Origin: a virus | DNA: 37,417 nucleotides | UHGV virus genome: UHGV-0367149 | Direction: 5' to 3' (one strand) | Shown here: piece by piece, positions 4,584 through 19,102 of the stretch | Layout: each line of letters opens with the position of its first letter | Numbering within the stretch: position 1 is the stretch's first letter | The notes under the pieces: model-generated | Databases searched by the model: none | The model's input: only the letters and a program-made list of their open reading frames with translations | Told to the model about the DNA's origin: nothing | Program-made: the position numbers and the translations under genes

Positions 4584-4768
4584 TGTGCACATCCTTTTGG
4601 CATCAGACGTAAACGAGCCAGCATTGAAACAATGCATATTTTATTTAATAGCTCCCGTTCTTGTTTTCTCTTGTTAATGGCATCTTCAGTAAATACAGGG
4701 TTACTGATAGTGACACCAATTTCAAAACAACCTTCAGACGTATTAACGTTTGGTAATAACGTTTTCAT
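4580..4768 (-). CDS. dicB: cell-division inhibitor DicB
   Basis: 62-aa product from the ATG at 4768 (MKTLLPNVNTSEGCFEIGVTISNPVFTEDAINKRKQERELLNKICIVSMLARLRLMPKGCAQ), matching DicB as recalled. GAGGA Shine-Dalgarno 7 nt upstream. The ORF track gives a longer GTG-initiated frame. Confidence 0.85.
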   Translation of the reverse strand: MKTLLPNVNTSEGCFEIGVTISNPVFTEDAINKRKQERELLNKICIVSMLARLRLMPKGCAQ

Positions 4769-4937: not shown

Positions 4938-4995
4938 AAAAAGGGCGGCAGAGCAGTCACGGAGTAAAACTGATACCGCCAAACGTCACCAGAAA
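4938..4995 (-). ncRNA. dicF: DicF small regulatory RNA (ftsZ-targeting), including its intrinsic terminator
   Basis: Minus-strand sequence UUUCUGGUGACGUUUGGCGGUAUCAGUUUUACUCCGUGACUGCUCUGCCGCCCUUUUU matches DicF as recalled. GC stem plus U-tract at the 3' end. Lies between the ydfB-like gene and dicB, as in Qin. Confidence 0.8.
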
Positions 4996-6179: not shown

Positions 6180-6587
6180 TTATTGATGCTTGTTGCGTTT
6201 GCGAGCCTCTAATAGCTCGGTGAACAGGCGATTAAAATTCTCAACGCGGGCGCGGAGTTCGCTGAGTTGTGCTTGTTGCTCTGATTTAGGAAGTGCGCGA
6301 TACAAACGCAGCATCTCTAACTCATCTTCCGATAAGTCTAAGGCACTATCGAGTGAAACAGGGGGAGCTGGTGTTTTGTCCTCGTCGCCAAACAGTATCC
6401 AAGTTGGTGAACATTGCAATACCTCGGCGAGGCGATGCAAATTTTGCCCGCGCGGGGCTGTATGGTCACTTTCCCATAATGAAATTGATGAGCCAGATAC
6501 GCCAGCAGCTTTGCTTAAACCGTTTTGACTTAAGCCTACCTGCTTACGTCTTTCTCTAATGCGTTGACCTAAAGTTTTCTCGTTCAT
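6180..6587 (-). CDS. DicA-like HTH (XRE-family) prophage repressor
   Basis: Product from the ATG at 6587 (MNEKTLGQRIRERRKQVGLSQNGLSKAAG...LQCSPTWILFGDEDK...) is colinear with K-12 DicA as recalled, roughly half identical. Divergent from the Cro-like gene. Confidence 0.85.
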   Translation of the reverse strand: MNEKTLGQRIRERRKQVGLSQNGLSKAAGVSGSSISLWESDHTAPRGQNLHRLAEVLQCSPTWILFGDEDKTPAPPVSLDSALDLSEDELEMLRLYRALPKSEQQAQLSELRARVENFNRLFTELLEARKRNKHQ

Positions 6588-6664
6588 ATTTAGATATCTT
6601 AATAACCCTTGACTTGAGATTCCTTGAGTGATTAGCATTGAGAAAACTCAATATTGGAGGTGCG
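6588..6664. promoter_or_regulatory. divergent promoter/operator region between the DicA-like repressor and DicC-like Cro genes
   Basis: 77-bp AT-rich intergenic region between divergently oriented repressor and Cro-like genes. Contains TTGACTTGAGATTCCTTGAGTGATTAGCATTGAGAAAACTCAATATTG with repeated TTGAG/CTCAA half-site-like elements. Operator positions not resolved. Confidence 0.45.
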
Positions 6665-6892
6665 ATGTTTAAATCAGACGTAATTAATTTTTACGGTACG
6701 AAAGCCAAAGTAGCGAAAGCTGCTGGCGTTGACCCATCTGCTGTTTCTCAATGGCAAGAGCTGGTTCCTGAAGGTCGCGCGATGCGTCTACAGGAGGCAT
6801 CTGGCGGCGAGCTTCTGTATGATCCCAAGGTTTATGACGAATATCGTAAGACGAAGCGGGCGGGGCGGTTGAACAATGAAAATCACTCCTGA
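6665..6892 (+). CDS. DicC-like Cro-type small regulator
   Basis: ATG at 6665 with GGAGG Shine-Dalgarno (6656-6660). 75-aa product MFKSDVINFYGTKAKVAKAAGVDPSAVSQWQ...; its C-terminal half resembles DicC as I recall it, but I am unsure of that recollection. Confidence 0.7.
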   Translation: MFKSDVINFYGTKAKVAKAAGVDPSAVSQWQELVPEGRAMRLQEASGGELLYDPKVYDEYRKTKRAGRLNNENHS

Positions 6893-7397
6893 ACAGGCTC
6901 GTGAGGCTCTGGATGCCTGGATATGTCGACCAGGAATGACACAGGAGCAGGCGACGATATTAATCACTGAAGCATTCTGGGCTTTGAAAGAGCGCCCGAA
7001 CATCGATGTTCAGCGTGTCACAGATGAAGGTGGCGCGGTTGATCAGCGAGCACTTGGCGTTAATCGAGTGAAGATATTCGAACGCTGGAAGGCTATCGAC
7101 ACCAGGGATAAGCGTGAAAAGTTCACGGCGCTAGTGCCTGCAATTATGGAGGCTATTCGGATTAATGATTTCAGGTTGTATCGTGAAATTAGTGACGGAA
7201 AAAGCATCACGTACATGATCGCCGGGTTAAACAAAGAATATGGCGATGTGGTGGAGTCCGGACTGCTTTTTGCTGATCCTGCCGTAGTGGATCGTGAAAC
7301 TGACGAACTTATAGAAAAAGCAATTGCTTTCAAACTTGCGTATCGACAGCAATACCAACAAAAAGCTGGATGGAATTATGAGCCTTCTTTTTGCTGA
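6876..7397 (+). CDS. YdaT-family protein (CII-like / putative toxin family)
   Basis: 173-aa ORF whose start overlaps the Cro-like stop. The segment ...VKIFERWKAIDTRDKREKFTALVPAIMEAI... parallels Rac YdaT (...NIYHRWLKGETKTAREKIQKLIPAILAIL...) as recalled. Confidence 0.55.
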   Translation: MKITPEQAREALDAWICRPGMTQEQATILITEAFWALKERPNIDVQRVTDEGGAVDQRALGVNRVKIFERWKAIDTRDKREKFTALVPAIMEAIRINDFRLYREISDGKSITYMIAGLNKEYGDVVESGLLFADPAVVDRETDELIEKAIAFKLAYRQQYQQKAGWNYEPSFC

Positions 7398-8343
7398 ACG
7401 CCCACTGGTTATAAACACACAGCTTGCGATGAAGATTGGCTTAAATGAAGCCATTGTGTTGCAGCAGTTGCATTACTGGTTGAGAGATACCAATTCCGGC
7501 ATGGAATGTGATGGTGTTCGCTGGATTTACAACACAACGGAACAATGGCTGGAACAGTTCCCATTCTGGTCAGAGTCAACGTTAAAGCGCGCGTTTGCAA
7601 GTCTGAAAACGCTGGGGCTTTTGCGTTGTGAAAAGCTCAATAAATCAAAGCGCGATATGACCAATTTCTACACGATCAACTACGGGAGCGAGCTTTTAGA
7701 TGGTGGCAAATTGAGCGAATCCATCGGTTTAAAATGCGCCGCTCCATCAGGTCAAAATGACACGATGGAAGAGGTCAAAATGAAACGCTCCATTGGTTCA
7801 AAACGACCCAATGTCATCGGGTCAAAATGGCCTGATGATCTTACAGAGAATACAACAGAGATTACTACAGAGAATAAAAACACTTTTCGTCCGGAAGCTT
7901 CGCAACCGGACCCGCAGACCGCTGAACAGGATTTTTTAACCCGGAACCCCGACGCGGTTGTGTTTAGTGCGAAAAAACGCCAGTGGGGTAGCAGGGAGGA
8001 TTTGGCGTGTGCGCAGTGGATTTGGGGGCGGATCGTGAACCTTTACGAACAGGCTGCCAGCGACGATGGAGAGATCATGCGACCAAAAGAGCCTAACTGG
8101 ACAGCCTGGGCCAATGACGTGCGCACAATGCGGATGCTGGATGGCAGAAGCCACAGACAAATTTGCGAAATGTTTGGTCGGGTACAGCGAGATCAATTCT
8201 GGGTAAAAAACATCATGAGCCCGTCAAAACTCCGCGAAAAATGGGACGAACTGGTCATCCGCCTGGGACGTTCACCTGTAAAGCGTTGTGTGAATCATAT
8301 TTCTGAACCGGATACAGAAATTCCGCCTGGTTTCAGGGGATAA
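7378..8343 (+). CDS. phage replication initiation (O-like / replisome-organizer) protein
   Basis: ATG at 7378 (the ORF track begins at an upstream TTG at 7324). N-terminal HTH-like region MSLLFAERPLVINTQLAMKIGLNEAIVLQQLHYWL... Sits after the Cro/YdaT genes, as YdaU does in Rac. Confidence 0.5.
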   Translation: MSLLFAERPLVINTQLAMKIGLNEAIVLQQLHYWLRDTNSGMECDGVRWIYNTTEQWLEQFPFWSESTLKRAFASLKTLGLLRCEKLNKSKRDMTNFYTINYGSELLDGGKLSESIGLKCAAPSGQNDTMEEVKMKRSIGSKRPNVIGSKWPDDLTENTTEITTENKNTFRPEASQPDPQTAEQDFLTRNPDAVVFSAKKRQWGSREDLACAQWIWGRIVNLYEQAASDDGEIMRPKEPNWTAWANDVRTMRMLDGRSHRQICEMFGRVQRDQFWVKNIMSPSKLREKWDELVIRLGRSPVKRCVNHISEPDTEIPPGFRG

Positions 8344-8383
8344 GTGTTGATTTTAGGGTATAAAGTAATGTTCAGGAGGACTT

Positions 8384-8803
8384 GTGGCAAAAGTTTTTAC
8401 ACAAGAAGAGCGGGAAAAAATTAAAGGGCAGGTGGTGGAACTCGTACGCCAGAGTGGGCGCGAGACGTTACGACAACTGGAAGCTAAAACTGGGGCAACA
8501 AGATATCTGATGAGCGTTCTGGCCAGAGAGCTGGTTGCCAGTGGCGATGTATACAGCTCTGGTTACGGGTTATTCCCGTCTGAACAGGCGCGTAAGGACT
8601 GGCAAAACGCCCGCAAAAAACTCTCGAGGGCAAAGGTGAAGAAACCTGCTGTGGTTGATCCGGACCTTATCTGGTCATTACCTGACGGAGAAATACGTCG
8701 CTACGACAGTCGTCTAAACATAATCTGTCGCGAGTGCCGGAAGGCAAGGAGAAGCAGGCTATTGTTAACACCAAGCTGTAATGTCCCCTTTGAACCATTC
8801 TAA
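8384..8803 (+). CDS. hypothetical protein; 3' end abuts or enters the IS left end
   Basis: GTG start with AGGAGGA Shine-Dalgarno. 139-aa product with no recognised family. Stop lies only 33 nt before the transposase ATG, so the C-terminus may be IS-derived. Confidence 0.4.
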   Translation: MAKVFTQEEREKIKGQVVELVRQSGRETLRQLEAKTGATRYLMSVLARELVASGDVYSSGYGLFPSEQARKDWQNARKKLSRAKVKKPAVVDPDLIWSLPDGEIRRYDSRLNIICRECRKARRSRLLLTPSCNVPFEPF

Positions 8804-10540
8804 AATGTCCCCAGACAATTCTCTGGGGGATTTTTCATGATCAAAGAGACTGTTACGATGAGTCATAAGGAACTCCACCGACTTCAGATTATTCAGGAGT
8901 CAATTAATCGACATATTACTCAGGAACAAGCTGCGGCACGCATTGGCATTTCTATTCGGCAGGTTAAACGTCTGGTGCAACGGTATAGAAATGAAGGGCC
9001 TTCTGGTCTGGTTTCCCACCGACGTGGAAAGCGTCCTAATAATTCCTTTTCTACTGAATTCAGAGCAACAGTAATTTCACTCCTCAAAGGCCGTTACGCT
9101 GATTTTGGACCTACGTTTGCGTGCGAAAAATTGCGCGAGATACACGGTTTATCTTTATCCGTTGAAACTCTCAGAAAGTGGATGATAGAAGAGGGGTTAT
9201 GGCGTGAACGCCGTCGTAAAATTGCCCGTATATATCAACGCCGCATGCGACGACCATCTTACGGTGAACTGATCCAGATTGATGGCTCACCTCATGACTG
9301 GTTTGAAAATCGAGGCCCCAGATGTACACTGATCGTTTTCATTGATGATGCCACCAGTGCGTTGATGGCGTTGCGTTTTGTGCCTGCTGAAACAACCCGG
9401 GCTTACATGGAAACCCTCCGGGGTTACCTTAATGATCATGGCGTACCGCTCGCTCTCTACTCTGATAGACACAGTATATTCAGGGTAAATAACCCAGAGC
9501 GGGAAGGTGAGCTGACCCAGTTCACTCGTGCGATAAAGACACTGGGCATCGAGCCAATCCATGCCAACAGCCCGCAGGCAAAAGGGCGGGTAGAGCGCGC
9601 CAATCAGACACTACAGGACAGGCTGGTCAAAGAAATGCGGCTTCAGAATATCAGTGATATTGAAACAGCAAATGCATGGTTGCCGACCTTTATTGAAGCC
9701 TATAACAACCGGTTCGCTACGTCGCCTCATACTACTGATAATGCTCATCTTGATGTGCACCATTCTGAAGAGGAACTGGGTTATATCTTCAGCCTACAGG
9801 CGAAGCGCGTTCTGTCTAAAAATCTCACTTTCCAGTACAAAAGCAGTGCGTTTCAGGTACGCAGTGAGGGCCGGGGATATCGACTTAGGCATTCGGTTGT
9901 TACTGTATGTGAGAACTTTGACGGTGAAATTAACGTTCTGTATGACGGGAAAGCGCTGGGCTGGGAAAAGTATGTTGATGGCCCGGAGCCTATACCACTG
10001 GATGATGAAAAGAGTGTCCATGAACGAGTGGATAATGCCCGTATTGATTTACGCTCAAAATACTATGTTAAATCTAAAGCTGACCATCCCTGGCTTACGC
10101 GCCGAACGCAAAGTCATCAGCAAGTTAAGCCCCCGAAGTTACCTAAAAAGAAGCCTGATCCCGATAAAATAGATTGAAACCAAGATCGATTCGGTTGAGT
10201 GCATATCCATTCATAGGGTAGATTCTTAAGTCGCGTTTCTGGTGTTCATTTTCGGGTGGTTTGTTACTTGTTTTACCGGGGATATGCCAGAAACGCGCTG
10301 AGTCAGTCTGGGCGGTGCGCGTAATGAGGCGTTATGGTAAATAGCCTATGCTAATGTCCGCTAAGAGCAAGAAGCGGAAGTTGGCAGTTTTGTGGACTGT
10401 CCCCACAAAAGTGACTACAGAAATAGTTGCAATTCATAATTGATCATGGGTTGTCAGTTAAACTCGTGGCGATTTAAATAGACTAATTGGGAGGGCGTCC
10501 ATTACTTATATCTTGTAATGTTAACTATCAGAAATGATAC
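8780..10540 (+). mobile_element. insertion sequence (single-ORF DDE transposase, IS481/ISNCY-like); ends not resolved
   Basis: Transposase ORF 8837-10177 plus about 350 bp of non-phage-like flank. I could not identify terminal inverted repeats or a target-site duplication by eye, so the boundaries are approximate. Confidence 0.4.
8837..10177 (+). CDS. IS transposase (N-terminal HTH, rve/DDE integrase core)
   Basis: 446-aa ORF. N-terminal HTH (...AAARIGISIRQVKRLVQRY...). Candidate DDE triad in ...LIQIDGSPHDW..., ...ALYSDRHSIF..., ...AKGRVERANQTLQ... Confidence 0.85.
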   Translation: MIKETVTMSHKELHRLQIIQESINRHITQEQAAARIGISIRQVKRLVQRYRNEGPSGLVSHRRGKRPNNSFSTEFRATVISLLKGRYADFGPTFACEKLREIHGLSLSVETLRKWMIEEGLWRERRRKIARIYQRRMRRPSYGELIQIDGSPHDWFENRGPRCTLIVFIDDATSALMALRFVPAETTRAYMETLRGYLNDHGVPLALYSDRHSIFRVNNPEREGELTQFTRAIKTLGIEPIHANSPQAKGRVERANQTLQDRLVKEMRLQNISDIETANAWLPTFIEAYNNRFATSPHTTDNAHLDVHHSEEELGYIFSLQAKRVLSKNLTFQYKSSAFQVRSEGRGYRLRHSVVTVCENFDGEINVLYDGKALGWEKYVDGPEPIPLDDEKSVHERVDNARIDLRSKYYVKSKADHPWLTRRTQSHQQVKPPKLPKKKPDPDKID

Positions 10541-10613: not shown

Positions 10614-10946
10614 TTAGACGTAAATATCAATGGTGCCAGCGGTATTTGTATCGTCTTTTTTCTCTTCTTTTTTATCAGGCTGAACTGTCGCGTCTTTATT
10701 CTTTTTCTCTGCCTGCTGCCTTAACAACTGCTCCAGTTGAGCCCTGAGGCTTTCAATTTGCTTCTGTACCAATGCAGCCATTTCTTTTTTCTGCTGTGTC
10801 GTCATCCCCTCTTCCGATGAGATTTTCCCAAGCTTTTCAGTCAACACCTGAATTTGTCTTGTGATTTTGGCTATTTCTGATGTTCCTTCCGGGGCGGAGT
10901 TGTTTGAAATAACGGTTGAGGTATTTCCCTGAATTGTGACAGACAT
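10614..10946 (-). CDS. flxA: FlxA (FliA-dependent Qin-prophage protein)
   Basis: 110-aa ORF MSVTIQGNTSTVISNNSAPEGTSEIAKITRQIQVLTEKLGK... matching K-12 FlxA as recalled. AAGGAG Shine-Dalgarno. Preceded by a sigma28-type promoter. Confidence 0.85.
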   Translation of the reverse strand: MSVTIQGNTSTVISNNSAPEGTSEIAKITRQIQVLTEKLGKISSEEGMTTQQKKEMAALVQKQIESLRAQLEQLLRQQAEKKNKDATVQPDKKEEKKDDTNTAGTIDIYV

Positions 10947-10969
10947 AGATTTCTCCTTTTAAAAAAGCA

Positions 10970-10996
10970 CTATCGGCATGCACAAAAAAATCTTTA
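10970..10996 (-). promoter_or_regulatory. sigma28 (FliA) promoter of flxA
   Basis: On the minus strand: TAAAGATT, an 11-nt spacer, then GCCGATAG, against the sigma28 consensus TAAAGTTT-N11-GCCGATAA. Positioned about 25 nt upstream of the flxA ATG. Confidence 0.65.
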
Positions 10997-11148
10997 ATCG
11001 TATTTCTTGTGTCATTAATTGTTTGATGTTCAGATTGTTTTCCTCGCGGGCTGGCGCGCCTCAGAAAGTAAAGCTTGTTGACAGGGGTAAACGTTCGGCA
11101 ATAATTTTCTGCCGCATGCGGGTGTTGCATAAAACGTGCTACGTTCCT

Positions 11149-11454
11149 TTATCGACAGGTCAGGTCACCGCTCACCCGCCGACGAGAAAGCAACACTGAC
11201 ATGCTAAAGCAAAAAATAGATGAATAAGTTGAGTTGTGCATATGTAGCCTGACCGTCACAAAGTATATGGTGTCTGTACCAGTAAGATGATGGCCGGACT
11301 CTTTAAAAGCGAGCTGACCTGCACAATACAGGATGGACTTAGCAATGGCTGCTCCTGGCACAAAGCGGACAGTGATCACCGTTCTTACGACTACTTTCTG
11401 ACTTCCTTCGTGACTTGCCCTAAGCATGTTGTAGTGCGATACTTGTAATGACAT
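11149..11454 (-). CDS. YdfV-like hypothetical protein
   Basis: 101-aa ORF between flxA and relB, the position and length of K-12 ydfV. Sequence is not strongly protein-like. Confidence 0.4.
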   Translation of the reverse strand: MSLQVSHYNMLRASHEGSQKVVVRTVITVRFVPGAAIAKSILYCAGQLAFKESGHHLTGTDTIYFVTVRLHMHNSTYSSIFCFSMSVLLSRRRVSGDLTCR

Positions 11455-11478
11455 TTGTAATTACAAGAGGTGTAAGAC

Positions 11479-11718
11479 ATGGGTAGCATTAACCTGCGTA
11501 TTGACGATGAACTTAAAGCGCGTTCTTACGCCGCGCTTGAAAAAATGGGTGTAACTCCTTCTGAAGCGCTTCGTCTCATGCTCGAGTATATCGCTGACAA
11601 TGAACGCTTGCCGTTCAAACAGACACTCCTGAGTGATGAAGATGCTGAACTTGTGGAGATAGTGAAAGAACGGCTTCGTAATCCTAAGCCAGTACGTGTG
11701 ACGCTGGATGAACTCTGA
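11479..11718 (+). CDS. relB: RelB antitoxin
   Basis: 79-aa ORF MGSINLRIDDELKARSYAALEKMGVTPSEALRLMLEYIADNERLPFKQTLLSDEDAELVEIVKERLRNPKPVRVTLDEL, matching K-12 RelB as recalled. Confidence 0.92.
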   Translation: MGSINLRIDDELKARSYAALEKMGVTPSEALRLMLEYIADNERLPFKQTLLSDEDAELVEIVKERLRNPKPVRVTLDEL

Positions 11719-12005
11719 TGGCGTATTTTCTGGATTTTGACGAGCGGGCACTAAAGGAATGGCGAAAGCTGGGCTCGACGGTACGTGAACAGTTGAAAAA
11801 GAAGCTGGTTGAAGTACTTGAGTCACCCCGGATTGAAGCAAACAAGCTCCGTGGTATGCCTGATTGTTACAAGATTAAGCTCCGGTCTTCAGGCTATCGC
11901 CTTGTATACCAGGTTATAGACGAGAAAGTTGTCGTTTTCGTGATTTCTGTTGGGAAAAGAGAACGCTCGGAAGTATATAGCGAGGCGGTCAAACGCATTC
12001 TCTGA
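11718..12005 (+). CDS. relE: RelE mRNA-interferase toxin
   Basis: 95-aa ORF MAYFLDFDERALKEWRKLGSTVREQLKKKLVEVLESPRIEANKLRGMPDCYKIKLRSSGYRLVYQVIDEKVVVFVISVGKRERSEVYSEAVKRIL. Start overlaps the relB stop. Confidence 0.92.
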   Translation: MAYFLDFDERALKEWRKLGSTVREQLKKKLVEVLESPRIEANKLRGMPDCYKIKLRSSGYRLVYQVIDEKVVVFVISVGKRERSEVYSEAVKRIL

Positions 12006-12076
12006 ACCAAAGCATGACATCTCTGTTTCGCACCGAAGGTGACACTTCTGCTTTGCGTTGACAGGAGAAGCAGGCT

Positions 12077-12232
12077 ATGAAGCAGCAAAAGGCGATGTTA
12101 ATCGCCCTGATCGTCATCTGTTTAACCGTCATAGTGACGGCACTGGTAACGAGGAAAGACCTCTGCGAGGTACGAATCCGAACCGGCCAGACGGAGGTCG
12201 CTGTCTTCACAGCTTACGAACCTGAGGAGTAA
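12077..12232 (+). CDS. hokD: HokD (RelF) Hok-family membrane toxin
   Basis: Not in the ORF track (51 aa). ATG at 12077 to TAA at 12230-12232 encodes MKQQKAMLIALIVICLTVIVTALVTRKDLCEVRIRTGQTEVAVFTAYEPEE, matching HokD as recalled. Directly downstream of relE. Confidence 0.88.
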   Translation: MKQQKAMLIALIVICLTVIVTALVTRKDLCEVRIRTGQTEVAVFTAYEPEE

Positions 12233-12299
12233 GAGACCCGGCGGGGGAGAAATCCCTCGCCACCTCTGATGTGGCAGGCATCCTCAACGCACCCGCACT

Positions 12300-12330
12300 T
12301 AACCCGCTTCGGCGGGTTTTTGTTTTTATT
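12300..12330 (+). terminator. intrinsic terminator after relB-relE-hokD
   Basis: AACCCGCTTCGGCGGGTTTTTGTTTTTATT: GC-rich hairpin followed by a T-tract. Confidence 0.65.
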
Positions 12331-12448
12331 TTCAACGCGTTTGAAGTTCTGGACGGTGCCGGAATAGAATCAAAAATACTTAAGTAGCGCGCAGGGATAA
12401 GAGGGATGGTCCCTTAAAGGGGAGAGCTAATTATCCGGAAGGATTCTG

Positions 12449-12700
12449 ATGATGAACATCGAAGAACTGCGTAAAATTTTTTGTGAAGATGGCCTCTATG
12501 CTGTGTGCGTTGAAAATGGAAATCTTGTTAGTCATTACCGCATTATGTGTTTGCGAAAGAATGGGGCTGCGTTAATTAATTTTGTGGATGCTCGGGTCAC
12601 GGACGGATTTATCTTGCGCGAAGGTGAGTTTGTCACTTCATTACAGGCATTGAAAGAGATCGGAATAAAAGCTGGCTTTTCTGCTTTTTCAGGAGAATAA
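12449..12700 (+). CDS. rem: Rem (Qin-prophage small protein)
   Basis: 83-aa ORF downstream of hokD, the position and length of K-12 rem. Sequence identity is recalled only weakly. Confidence 0.6.
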   Translation: MMNIEELRKIFCEDGLYAVCVENGNLVSHYRIMCLRKNGAALINFVDARVTDGFILREGEFVTSLQALKEIGIKAGFSAFSGE

Positions 12701-12766
12701 ACTCATCTACAATCTTGCGCGGGGCTGAACTCCCGCTGAGTAACACCGTGCCACCGGAGAAAACCG

Positions 12767-13045
12767 ATGGCACGCAACGCAAAATATTACAATTCTGATA
12801 ATTCGCCCGTTCTTGCCTGCACGCACGGGCGGTATTCTCACGCATTCAAGTCTGAATGGTTCCAGCACCCTCCATGCACTGCAGAACAGGCCGAATGGCT
12901 GATTCATTCTTACCGCAGGCGCGGGTTCGAGGTTAAGAAAGCTCTCAGTCTCGACTATCGGCACTGGATAATCTCTGTCAGGCTGCCTTATTCCGAACGC
13001 CCACCACGTGCGTCCCGCACTTTCCAGCAACGGATCTGGAGGTAA
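12767..13045 (+). CDS. hypothetical 92-aa protein, translationally coupled to ydfU
   Basis: ATG at 12767 preceded by GGAG. Its TAA stop (13043-13045) sits inside the GGAGG Shine-Dalgarno of the downstream GTG start. No recognised family. Confidence 0.4.
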   Translation: MARNAKYYNSDNSPVLACTHGRYSHAFKSEWFQHPPCTAEQAEWLIHSYRRRGFEVKKALSLDYRHWIISVRLPYSERPPRASRTFQQRIWR

Positions 13046-13046
13046 C

Positions 13047-14096
13047 GTGCGGGTATTACTTAGACCTGTTCTGGTGCCTGAGCTTGGGCTGGTGGTCCTT
13101 AAGCCGGGCCGTGAATCCATACAGATATTTCATAATCCTCGAGTGCTGGTGGAACCGGAACCAAAAAGCATGCGTAATCTGCCATCCGGAGTCGTTCCTG
13201 CCGTTCGCCAGCCGCTGGCGGAAGACAAAACATTGCTGCCGTTTTTTAGTAACGAACGGGTGATTCGTGCTGCTGGCGACGTTGGCGCATTGTCCGACTG
13301 GCTATTACGTCATGTTACATCCTGCCAGTGGCCTAATGGCGATTACCATCACACTGAAACAGTCATTCACCGTTATGGTACCGGCGCAATGGTGTTGTGC
13401 TGGCACTGCGACAACCAACTGCGTGACCAGACATCGGAATCACTGGAGCTGCTTGCTCAACAAAATCTGACAGCATGGGTGATTGACGTCATCCGTCACG
13501 CAATAAGCGGTACGCAGGAGCGGGAATTATCTTTGGCTGAATTATCCTGGTGGGCGGTCTGCAATCAGGTGGTGGATGCACTACCTGAGGCTGTATCGCG
13601 TCGTTCGCTGGGATTACCAGCGGAAAAAATCTGCTCGGTGTACCGCGAAAGCGACATCGTACCGGGAGAGCAGACCGCCACCAGCATATTGAAACAACGC
13701 ACAAAAAATCTTGCACCGTTGCCTTACGCCCACCAGCAACAAAAATCACCACAGGAAAAGACGGTGGTAAGCATCACCGTTGATCCAGAGTCTCCGGAAT
13801 CTTTCATGAAGCTGCCTAAACGTCGCCGCTGGGTTAAGGAGAAATACACACGTTGGGTTAAGACACAGCCGTGTGCTTGCTGCGGTATGCCAGCCGACGA
13901 TCCGCATCATCTGATTGGTCACGGGCAGGGCGGAATGGGAACAAAAGCACATGATCTCTTTGTGTTGCCTTTGTGCAGAAAGCATCACAACGAGCTGCAT
14001 ACGGATACAGTGGCATTTGAAGATAAGTATGGCTCCCAACTGGAGCTGATATTTCGTTTTATCGATCGCGCGCTGGCAATTGGCGTACTGGCGTAA
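13047..14096 (+). CDS. ydfU: YdfU (DUF968) protein with HNH-like Cys/His motif
   Basis: GTG at 13047 with GGAGG 5 nt upstream gives 349 aa, the K-12 YdfU length as recalled. C-terminus ...CACCGMPADDPHHLIGHGQGG...CRKHHNELH is an HNH/zinc-finger-like signature. The ORF-track ATG at 13008 is the alternative start. Confidence 0.75.
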   Translation: MRVLLRPVLVPELGLVVLKPGRESIQIFHNPRVLVEPEPKSMRNLPSGVVPAVRQPLAEDKTLLPFFSNERVIRAAGDVGALSDWLLRHVTSCQWPNGDYHHTETVIHRYGTGAMVLCWHCDNQLRDQTSESLELLAQQNLTAWVIDVIRHAISGTQERELSLAELSWWAVCNQVVDALPEAVSRRSLGLPAEKICSVYRESDIVPGEQTATSILKQRTKNLAPLPYAHQQQKSPQEKTVVSITVDPESPESFMKLPKRRRWVKEKYTRWVKTQPCACCGMPADDPHHLIGHGQGGMGTKAHDLFVLPLCRKHHNELHTDTVAFEDKYGSQLELIFRFIDRALAIGVLA

Positions 14097-15496: not shown

Positions 15497-15796
15497 AAAA
15501 ATTCCTTAATACTGATAACTTGGCGCACTATACACACGTTCCTGAAGAAAGCTATAGTTTTTTGATGGGGTTGAAGATGGCTGGATGTCTAAAATAAACA
15601 TTGCTTCATATGTTCAACTATGCGTTAATGATTGCGTCGGTTTGAAGAACAGACGATATACGAAGTAGTTTACTAAAGCAGTTCTCATTTCAGGTGTTAT
15701 TCACTTATTCCTTCTTTGAGTCTCTCCAATTAAGTACGAAGTCGTTTCTGTTATGCAAACCATTTATGCCGAAAGGCTCAAGTTAAGGAATGTAGA

Positions 15797-16012
15797 ATGT
15801 CAAATAAAATGACTGGTTTAGTAAAATGGTTTAACGCTGATAAAGGTTTCGGCTTTATTTCTCCTGTTGATGGTAGTAAAGATGTGTTTGTGCATTTTTC
15901 TGCGATTCAGAATGATAATTATCGAACCTTATTTGAAGGTCAAAAGGTTACCTTCTCTATAGAGAGTGGTGCTAAAGGTCCTGCAGCAGCAAATGTCATC
16001 ATTACTGATTAA
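15797..16012 (+). CDS. cspB: cold-shock protein CspB
   Basis: 71-aa [74 protein letters not shown] with canonical RNP1/RNP2 motifs. Divergent from cspF, as in Qin. Confidence 0.85.
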
Positions 16013-16294
16013 AATTCATCGCTCGTCTGTATACGATAACGAAGAAGGCTGATGCCTGAGTAGAGATACGGACAGAGTAGTGAATATTGGATCTCTTTAA
16101 TAAAAAGTAAGGAGGTCCAATACATGAAACAATGGCTAGCATATTTGGCAAAATCTTAATCAGGAAAAGTATGCTAACCATTGTGGTGAAGTGCAGGTTT
16201 GCTGCATGAATAGTTTTACAGCAGAAGCTAACTGCTGGCATGGCAAAACAAAGTGCGTAAGTGGATGACTCCCACAAAAAGCACCACAATCTCA

Positions 16295-18321: not shown

Positions 18322-18683
18322 GGTAATATTAAATCGGAACATTTACATCGCGGAATGTAAAATTTAAATAAAAAGGACTCTTCCATGAGCCAAAATTCCT
18401 GAAATCTTAAGGGTAAGATAAAAGGTCTTAATCAGAATGACACGTTTTATTAATAAATAAAGCTATTCTTTCATTGCTGTGTTTTTCTTTACAAAAGTAA
18501 TCCTTGCCATGGGTGGTTAATCATGCGTTAATGGTGTTCTGGTTTGTTACAAATTTATCTGAAGCAGTCATTGTTATAATTTTATTATTTGTACCTCTTG
18601 AGATTTCCTTGTTGGTTTTTCTCTCTGATATTTTTTTTCGGACCATTCTGCCCAAGGGCTAATTTCTTCAAAAGGTAATAATT

Positions 18684-18896
18684 ATGTCTAACAAAATGAC
18701 TGGTTTAGTGAAATGGTTTAACCCTGAAAAAGGTTTTGGTTTCATCACGCCGAAAGATGGCAGCAAAGATGTGTTTGTCCATTTCTCAGCAATTCAGAGC
18801 AACGATTTCAAAACATTAACTGAGAATCAGGAAGTTGAATTTGGTATTGAGAACGGACCTAAAGGTCCTGCCGCTGTTCATGTAGTGGCGCTTTGA
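18684..18896 (+). CDS. cspI: cold-shock protein CspI
   Basis: 70-aa [73 protein letters not shown]. Long upstream untranslated region (18322-18683), typical of cold-shock genes. Confidence 0.85.
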
Positions 18897-19102
18897 GGTA
18901 GACAATATTACAAACCATATTCACTTTAGATGCCCGTGTTGTCATGGTTCCCAGTATAGAACATCATCTTTTGATGTTTCTGACATGAATCCTTTCGGGG
19001 CAAAATGTATCTTTTGTAAATCAATGATGATTACATTTGATAATATTTCACAATACTTAAATGCCAGCCGTCTGTCGTTGGATTTAAAAAAGTGAAAATG
19101 AA

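Follow-up and report, generated by a model that had tools for sequence, protein, structure and literature searches.

Regulation of the hok/sok type found on plasmid R1 is the paradigm of type I toxin-antitoxin (TA) systems. In hok systems, long-range structure of the mRNA makes translation of hok depend on mok. Transposons that carry TA genes are also known, and examples include elements of the Tn3 family with TA genes. The subject of this report is the relB-relE-hokD gene cluster of UHGV-0367149, a viral genome of 37,417 nucleotides. This whole stretch is called the window, its coordinates count from its first letter, and L-numbers (L003, L295 and so on) are labels of comparison loci. The cluster is relBEF (relB-relE-hokD), an operon already described from Qin-type lambdoid prophages. 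We propose that this operon was very probably formed when an ISEsa1-like insertion sequence (IS) of the IS1202 family inserted into the start region of a hok gene. We lean, by a smaller measure of confidence, towards the fuller statement that a hok-targeting relBE transposon, which makes a 15-16-bp duplication, separates the toxin from the hok promoter, mok and Sok alike and turns it into a third cistron behind relBE, and that this is both correct and undescribed.

The locus that resembles the window most is relBEF of the Qin prophage in Escherichia coli K-12. Window positions 11400-12400 are 100% identical (1001 bp) to E. coli K-12 MG1655 and to many other strains, in which RefSeq places relB, relE and hokD with identical protein accessions. 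The likeness extends to the three proteins, the terminator and the flanking ydfV, flxA and rem. The arrangement of three genes as in K-12 Qin, already suggested by the first-pass annotation, is confirmed by this identity and by a sole terminator after hokD. From position 9993 on, the window shares 99.75% identity with K-12 Qin. The prophage of the window is more complete than K-12 Qin, with int, xis, exo, replication genes, terminase and portal among its genes. It also keeps the left end, the transposase fragment and the left duplication (8748-9907) that K-12 has lost by deletion. At least 80% of 11400-12400 is present in 1162 of 5426 complete E. coli genomes, and the relBE-hokD stretch of an induced-phage record, PhiR42_1 (ECOR13), is 100% identical. 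The best match to the whole window is strain DSM 103246.

Among canonical prophage hok/sok loci are the L003-type alleles and the functional TA pair hokW-sokW of Sakai prophage Sp5 (PMC8621323). They occupy the same prophage position as hokD of the window, upstream of rem, ydfU and the Q antiterminator, and the hok body, 3' untranslated region (UTR) and terminator of the L003-type alleles are 99.6% identical to those of the window. The canonical loci have a full leader (tac, mok and the Sok gene, with Rfam sok above 100 bits) and a promoter of their own, whereas hokD of the window is the third cistron of relBE. With hok/sok of plasmid R1 the window shares a toxin of the Hok/Gef family and the mRNA architecture 3' of the Shine-Dalgarno (SD) sequence, including the 3' fold-back element, but it is without the antisense RNA, mok and the 5'-3' tac-fbi lock. 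Among mobile elements, the TA-carrying Tn3-family transposons also hold a type II TA pair inside a transposable element. The element described here differs from them in its transposase family, in the position of the TA pair at the very end, where it reads outward, and in a target that is itself a TA locus. The IS1202 family (ISEsa1, the ISTde1 subgroup and transporter IS such as ISKpn21) shares with it a DDE transposase, imperfect inverted repeats of about 26 bp, long target duplications (15-17-bp repeats in the ISTde1 subgroup) and a marked target specificity. Two surveys of the IS1202 family sort its members by length of the direct repeat (5-6, 15-17 or 27-28 bp) and describe dif sites as the targets of the short-repeat class. 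No description that links this IS1202-family IS to relBE or hok was found in the searchable literature. The locus is already known, while its transposon origin and the targeting of hok appear to be undescribed.

The segment 8763-12063 (3301 bp) bears the signature of transposition because it has inverted repeats at both ends and a perfect 15-bp direct repeat just outside them. The left inverted repeat (IRL; 8763-8790, + strand; TGTTAACACCAAGCTGTAATGTCCCCTT) of this ISEsa1-like element begins TGTTAACACCAAGCTGTAATGTCCCC at 8763. The right inverted repeat (IRR; 12036-12063, + strand) has the reverse complement TGTCAACGCAAAGCAGAAGTGTCACCTT, and its terminal A is the first base of the hokD SD sequence AGGAG. 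A search of all 37 kb for inverted matches to IRL positions 8763-8788 gives 12038-12063 as the best one, with 19 of 26 positions identical, and this match coincides exactly with the right edge of the relBE module described below. When the alignment is anchored at both termini, 20 of 27 positions agree. The target-site duplication, GGAGAAGCAGGCTAT, stands at 8748-8762 on the left and at 12064-12078 on the right (both + strand). Its left copy comprises the hok SD, the spacer and the 'AT' of the ATG with no hok body, and its right copy supplies the SD and the 'AT' of the hokD start codon. An insertion of this kind would explain why hokD has kept a perfect ribosome-binding site and start codon, both being target duplication.

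Inside these ends lie a decayed transposase gene, flxA and, at the right end, relBE. The transposase gene (8858-10177, + strand) is of the IS1202/ISNCY family and consists of a fragment at 8858-9907 and of 'ydfW' at 10028-10177. The fragment scores 454 bits against NCBIfam NF033594 and is labelled 'IS1202-like element ISEsa1 family transposase, incomplete' in RefSeq. ydfW corresponds to the C-terminal 49 codons, with 84% identity to residues 398-446 of the intact 446-aa protein; it is a transposase remnant and not an independent gene. The intact 446-aa transposase is present in L293 and L297 (WP_000589001.1 in L297), and 8787-10372 of the window shows 91% DNA homology to the intact copy. The element combines an ISNCY/IS1202-type DDE transposase, imperfect inverted repeats of about 22-29 bp and a long target duplication, which are three sequence features of the IS1202 family. 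A stem-loop (ATGTCCGCT...AGCGGAAGT, 10354-10383) follows 3' of the transposase, and plasmid copies have the IS110-like ISEsa2 inside the equivalent hairpin.

An extant intermediate is found in E. coli TUM1880 (L295) and LD39-1 (L294), where a complete hok leader (Rfam sok 104 bits) stands to the left of the element. The left half of these loci reads DUF977, small open reading frames (ORFs), hok leader, 15-bp repeat, IRL and transposase fragment, and the right half reads ydfW, flxA, relBE, IRR, 15-bp repeat and hokD. Prophage L003 and the window align collinearly at window positions 6571-8743 and 12063-14000. A 1.8-kb deletion, which runs from GTGCCGGAAG of the DUF977 gene to GTGCCGAAAG of the leader hairpin, separates the window from the L295 intermediate. 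The deletion junction at 8735-8744 (+ strand) joins the former sequence to the last bases of the leader, which read as the latter in intact alleles, and shows 9/10 microhomology. K-12 is without the left end and the left repeat because window positions 7156-9992 have been further deleted there. Among 77 IMG/VR loci, both element ends are readable in 37. The 15-bp repeat is perfect in 32 of these 37, and the leader is still present in 28 of the 32.

The same element ends are found at other hok genes. An identical IRL adjoins a duplicated hok SD in L297 and L292, and the IRR adjoins a duplicated target in L295, L297 and L296. In the IncHI2A plasmid NZ_CP073658 (L297), the ends enclose the transposase, ISEsa2, cytochrome b, a CDF transporter and relBE. 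The flanks of this copy are a 15-bp duplication (GGAGAAGAAGGCCAT, at 4739-4753 and 10847-10861 of L297) within a hok locus, of which L088 is the uninterrupted form. In the Klebsiella pneumoniae plasmid NZ_CP024490, the ends adjoin a hok leader and have a 16-bp duplication (GGAGATGTATGGGTCC) that starts at the hok SD. The target in L017 follows directly after the right end as its reverse complement, at a hok start, which points to an insertion in the opposite orientation. Canonical and fused alleles can be paired in three hok lineages (hokD with L003, IncHI2 hok L008 with L088, and IncFII hok L013 with L167). They are 99.6-100% identical and break at the same nucleotide; the IncFII hok body joined to the right end of the element, for example, is 99.6% identical to the canonical allele.

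These observations bear on the view that the relE-hokD junction arose by a one-off illegitimate rearrangement, that is a random deletion or fusion, and not by transposition. Such a view agrees with the literature, in which hokD is without its canonical components through genomic rearrangement ('inactivated by a major genetic rearrangement'), and with K-12, which lacks both the left end and the duplication. Secondary deletions did happen, as seen in the microhomology junction at 8735-8744, in the rare L006 allele, where only the last 44 nt of the element are left between the leader and hokD, and in L126, which like L118 has a deletion from the right end of the element into the hokD coding sequence. 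The L006, L126 and L118 derivatives are equally accounted for by the insertion model. What this view leaves unaccounted for is a perfect 15-bp direct repeat placed exactly outside a pair of terminal inverted repeats, an extant intermediate with an intact leader, and at least three further junctions at other hok genes with the same element ends, two of them with their own 15-16-bp duplications. The right end is moreover nucleotide-identical in more than 20 unrelated contexts. We therefore consider a one-off rearrangement very improbable, and prefer insertion of the IS1202-family element.

Such an insertion explains why the leader of hokD is missing at its usual place, and the left end of the inserted element is itself in the window, 3.3 kb upstream. 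The Rfam model sok (RF01794) covers the hok leader including the Sok gene. It gives no match at E<=10 within 10800-13000, and nothing in the full window reaches its gathering score. Upstream of the hokD alleles L003, L005, L295 and L294, whose hokD body is 99.6% identical, the model reaches 104-108 bits; it also matches upstream of hokC (L004), with an overall range elsewhere of 104-122 bits. The negative result in the window is informative because the sister alleles score above 100 bits. A scan for minus-strand promoters around hokD found none, and the -35 region of the L003 Sok promoter is replaced at 12063 in the window. Alignment to canonical hokD alleles begins at this same position, 14 nt 5' of the ATG. 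In L003 an in-frame mok ATG stands 19 codons upstream of hokD; the corresponding frame of the window is closed by a TGA at 12059-61. The + strand of the relBE-hokD transcription unit does not contain the 5' tac motif GCGGGTGC. The first-pass annotation had seen no mok- or sok-like elements upstream of hokD, and these searches bear it out.

The locus therefore fails three defining features of hok/sok, namely Sok, mok and tac. As far as its sequence goes, hokD is an orphan type I toxin gene, because the hok promoter, tac, mok, the Sok gene and the Sok target have all been lost. That hokD is still a normal type I locus, in which a Sok-like antisense RNA and mok were overlooked on first reading, might be expected from its SD, 3' fold-back element and terminator, all of which are retained, and from the presence of a sok/mok leader at most E. 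coli hokD-like genes. The missing Rfam match, the missing minus-strand promoter, the in-frame TGA at 12059-61 and the end of allele homology at 12063 refute it at the sequence level and leave it next to no probability. Sok made elsewhere cannot pair here either, because the Sok target region is gone. The predicted fold of the full-length canonical L003 mRNA has the 5'-3' tac-fbi pairing (z=-7.8). The relE-hokD mRNA is predicted to fold with a mostly paired start region, whose SD and AUG take part in the same long-range helices as those of the canonical mRNA.

Other candidates for residual control of hokD were also considered. A sok-like RNA or antisense promoter in 11950-12100 was ruled out by negative Rfam (E<=10) and promoter scans. 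Neither the 58-nt tail of relE (12006-12063) nor the left edge of the relBE module resembles four canonical leaders above the level of shuffled sequences, so that neither is supported as a diverged hok leader. The tail sequence UGCGUUGA (12054-61) can pair with the fbi element of hokD and was considered as a substitute for tac. It occurs with hokD only, other fused hok types being without it, and the complementarity is probably due to chance.

The right end of the element is a 717-bp relBE module (11347-12063, + strand) made up of promoter, relB, relE, the 58-nt tail and the IRR. A BLAST search of the 5426 E. coli genomes finds thousands that match from 12063 on only. Kluyvera, Enterobacter, Klebsiella, Citrobacter, Pantoea and other genera carry the module itself at 90-100% identity. 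About 900 PLSDB records also contain it, and among them it adjoins at least 12 different sequences on the left and at least 15 on the right. The right edge does not vary with the downstream sequence and reads ...GCGTTGACA; at one locus an inverted hok leader adjoins it. Several mobile features with known boundaries (integron attC, dif/Xer, IS26, IS200/IS605 and REP) were compared with the sharp right end by motif inspection, and none fit. Spread of the fusion by homologous recombination in the hok SD-ATG block would fit three junctions; non-hok contexts and the +3/+10 junctions do not fit. It was rejected because duplications account better for the pattern. The module was also considered as a self-contained miniature element with inverted repeats of its own. 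This was dropped in favour of the larger element because the similarity of the two edges (29 against 12.9+-2.3, in the window) is lost in copies of 90-94% identity and the module alone has no duplication.

The spread of the module is relevant to a further alternative, in which relBE-hok is an old, selected three-gene operon and Hok a functional second toxin that is freed on relBE derepression. The recurrence of the module beside eight different hok genes would then reflect selection, and not target preference alone. Besides hokD, seven different Pfam-verified Hok ORFs follow the module in different genera, beginning 3-13 nt past its edge, and hokD is intact in all 62 IMG/VR loci with relBE-hokD. 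RelF has been published as a hok-like membrane toxin that is toxic on overexpression, and HokD has been used as a toxic control. Toxin-induced cleavage leads to accumulation of the relF portion of the transcript (PMC3598666). An old operon is harder to reconcile with hok bodies that are 99.6-100% identical to canonical alleles, because such identity makes the fusions recent. Among the fused hok genes, those of L018, L035 and L126 have frameshifts or truncations, the insertion in L017 is reversed and yields no fusion, and the target duplication by itself accounts for the SD and ATG that have been kept. A test for selection on fused hokD was dropped because 59 of the 62 sequences are identical, which leaves too little variation. 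On this evidence we think a selected second toxin unlikely, and recurrence through selection equally so. The preference for hok starts may come from the transposase or from selection.

Several points weigh against insertion by an IS1202-family element as the origin of the operon. The transposase of the window is a pseudogene. Evidence for the mobility of the composite is comparative, from empty and filled sites (L088 against L297, and L003 against L295) and from several independent sites of insertion. The same 3301-bp element occurs in L120 (IMG/VR) at a non-hok site with a repeat of only 6 bp (CGCCTT). The folds of the start region are predictions only. The left edge of the relBE module is sharp in many contexts that have no transposase and is common to a different TA cassette. 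A simple transposon model does not explain this edge, and the inverted similarity of the two module edges is lost in diverged copies. Finally, ISfinder and Harmer & Hall give ISEsa1 a length of 1609 bp and record neither a detectable duplication nor a conserved target for it. A functional right end on the side of relBE conflicts with this current definition, because the catalogued element is shorter and has no duplication. In comparison with catalogued ISEsa1, the unit described here is flanked by a duplication, measures 3.3-6 kb, ends with the relBE module and has hok ribosome-binding sites, not dif sites, as its targets. The transposase would then have mobilised the IRL together with the relBE-side end. 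An element of 1609 bp starting at 8763 ends at 10371, which is where an IS110-like element, annotated ISEsa2 in the IncHI2A copy, interrupts the homology to the plasmid copy. Because of this coincidence, we suspect that ISEsa1 has been mis-delimited and that its catalogued right end is the insertion point of ISEsa2.

The first ~25 nt of the module form a stem-loop, GTCCGCTT-CTGGCAC-AAAGCGGAC, which recurs on another TA cassette that occupies the same plasmid site, as well as beside other modules in at least 120 IMG/VR contigs. Stem-loops of the type ATGTCCGCTT-N7-AAGCGGACAT recur at several boundaries. One is at the left edge of the module (window 11343-11371, where it is degenerate), another bounds a tacAT-like cassette of a Klebsiella plasmid (L170:3195-3225), and in at least 50 prophage contigs (L172-L251) a third bounds a DUF977-side module of 620 bp. 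The hairpin at 10354-10383 inside the element, the insertion point of ISEsa2 in plasmid copies, is related to them. In NZ_CP024490 (L170:3307-4064), a DUF1778 and GNAT (tacAT-like) pair stands where other plasmids have relBE. About 260 nt beyond it (L170:4320-4393 / L292) is a partial hok leader that ends at the SD, with the ISEsa1-like element inserted there. TA cassettes seem to be exchanged at the shared boundary. Besides the non-hok site, the IMG/VR contigs (L120 and L147) point to another target, GGAGGGGCTATGATG, which stands to the left of one element copy and to the right of another, which suggests a further hok-like target and recombination between copies of the element.

The genes of the cluster are as the first-pass annotation described them. 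The RelB/RelE pair is borne out by Pfam and by identity to K-12. relB (11479-11718, + strand) encodes an antitoxin of 79 aa (Pfam RelB, E=1e-32; RefSeq WP_000534858.1, the same accession as in K-12). It is a small antitoxin gene directly before, and sharing 1 nt with, the gene for a toxin of the RelE/ParE fold. This gene, relE (11718-12005, + strand), encodes 95 aa (Pfam ParE_toxin/RelE, E=2e-13; RefSeq WP_000323025.1, as K-12 RelE), and phmmer aligns its product over the full length, residues 1-95, with the RelE chains of PDB 4FXE and 4V7K (E~1e-57). RelE is a ribosome-dependent mRNA endonuclease restrained by the labile RelB.

A putative relBE promoter (11415-11467, + strand) was placed by eye, with a -35 hexamer TTGCCC at 11415-20 and a -10 hexamer GATACT at 11438-43, which together score 8/12 and stay under the threshold of the scan. 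Upstream of relB lies a palindrome, the putative operator (11442-11467, 92% complementary), the sequence being that of the K-12 promoter. Autorepression of this promoter by RelB-RelE has been published (bioRxiv 10.1101/239335). Scanning the 71-nt spacer between relE and hokD revealed no promoter-like and no terminator-like site. Northern blots with relB, relE and relF probes show a single full-length relBEF mRNA, and its induction is abolished by deletion of PrelBEF (PMC3598666). For transcription, these published blots support the earlier suggestion that hokD is regulated through the relBE operon. An ORF annotated as 'ydfV' (11149-11454, - strand) crosses the left boundary of the relBE module (~11347) and lies antisense over the relBE promoter. 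The equivalent ORF of plasmid L008 has only its first ~32 residues in common with it, all inside the module, and diverges beyond; ydfV is probably not a real gene.

hokD (relF; 12077-12232, + strand; RefSeq WP_000813254.1) encodes a membrane toxin of the Hok/Gef family. The 51-aa ORF had been assigned to this family from the letters alone and was absent from the ORF track, being under its 60-aa cut-off; the family assignment is upheld by a profile search, in which residues 6-47 match Pfam HOK_GEF (E=1.2e-23, 82.9 bits, cut-off 22). The peptide (MKQQKAMLIALIVICLTVIVTALVTRKDLCEV...) has the length of about 50 aa, the N-terminal hydrophobic helix and the conserved Cys of Hok/Gef proteins. The codon of Tyr47 (TAC, 12215-12217) and the following G make up the TadA editing motif TACG. 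Tyr-to-Cys editing of hokD by TadA has been published at a low level of about 6% (PMC5630033, PMC12214031). The 3' 'fbi' element of the hok mRNA (CCTCAACGCACCCGC, 12282-12296, + strand) is retained and its 5' partner tac (GCGGGTGCTTGAGG) is lost. The strong terminator reported after hokD is an intrinsic terminator that comes from the hok locus (12301-12328, + strand). It has a 7-bp stem with the loop TTCG at 12301-12318, followed by a T run, and 12301-12318 is the sole terminator-like site in a scan of 11200-12500. The canonical alleles L003 and L006 carry an identical terminator.

Some minor features overlap the start and the end of hokD. A GTG upstream ORF (uORF) of 13 codons (12039-12080) lies in the frame of relE, and its TGA overlaps the hokD start (ATGA). 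Many copies of the module outside E. coli have an ATG (caccgATGgtg) ahead of this GTG. The GTG uORF has no SD and is not kept in diverged copies; it could pass ribosomes to the hok start in place of mok. A 55-codon TTG ORF (12058-12225) that overlaps hokD in another frame has no support and is probably spurious. The hokD 3' UTR and terminator (window 12241-12322; L006:2723-2804) give a weak match of 25-27 bits, against a gathering score of 50, to Rfam isrK, the Hfq-binding RNA of Salmonella Gifsy-1. This may be a mere resemblance of two hairpins.

Beyond the cluster, the window is a lambdoid prophage that resembles K-12 Qin but is more complete. Its gene set includes integrase, excisionase, exonuclease, dicB, repressor/cro, ydaT, O, DUF977, Q, lysis genes, terminase and portal. 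Rfam also finds the DicF antisense RNA at 4943-4994 (- strand, 76.7 bits) and two thermoregulator leaders of the cspA type, at 15636-16028 (+ strand, 158.8 bits) and 18538-18923 (+ strand, 112.8 bits), which sit upstream of cspB and cspI. Together with DicF, these leaders are expected for a Qin-type prophage.

The origin of the operon can be outlined as follows. An ISEsa1-like element of the IS1202 family would have landed in the translation-initiation region of a canonical prophage hok/sok locus. Its layout would have been IRL, transposase, passenger DNA, relBE and IRR, with relBE lacking a terminator of its own. Because relBE lies at the extreme right and is without such a terminator, its transcripts would leave the element. 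The insertion would have doubled 15 bp of the target, and the right copy, with the G that follows it, would have rebuilt the hok SD and ATG behind the outward-reading relBE. The former hok promoter, tac, mok and the Sok gene would have been stranded across the element, where they no longer act on hokD. A later deletion of 1.8 kb would have removed the stranded sok/mok leader in the lineage of the window, and K-12 would have lost the left end as well.

In the resulting operon, transcription would run from the relBE promoter through relB, relE, the 71-nt spacer and hokD to the hok-derived terminator, with repression by RelB-RelE at the operator. The level of hokD mRNA would thus track the autoregulation of relBE. 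Translation of hokD is probably low, as the folding model suggests, through the long-range structure of the hok mRNA at the start site, now that coupling to mok is gone. Because this structure is kept and mok is lost, low translation would allow the gene to be tolerated without an antitoxin.

The cluster itself is textbook knowledge, and its confirmation adds little; what counts is the mechanism of its origin. The vague 'major rearrangement' that was thought to have orphaned hokD is replaced by a specific and testable event. The comparisons point to a transposon whose target is unusual and very narrow, namely the region where translation of hok genes starts, both in prophages and in the large IncHI2 and IncF resistance plasmids. 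They also suggest a corrected delimitation and a target for ISEsa1, formerly an element with no known duplication or target. For users of K-12 relBE and hokD knockouts or of the relF kill switch, the genes would be parts of one mobile element within another. If the proposal is true, one addiction module hijacks another, and relBEF of K-12 would be the decayed product of that process.

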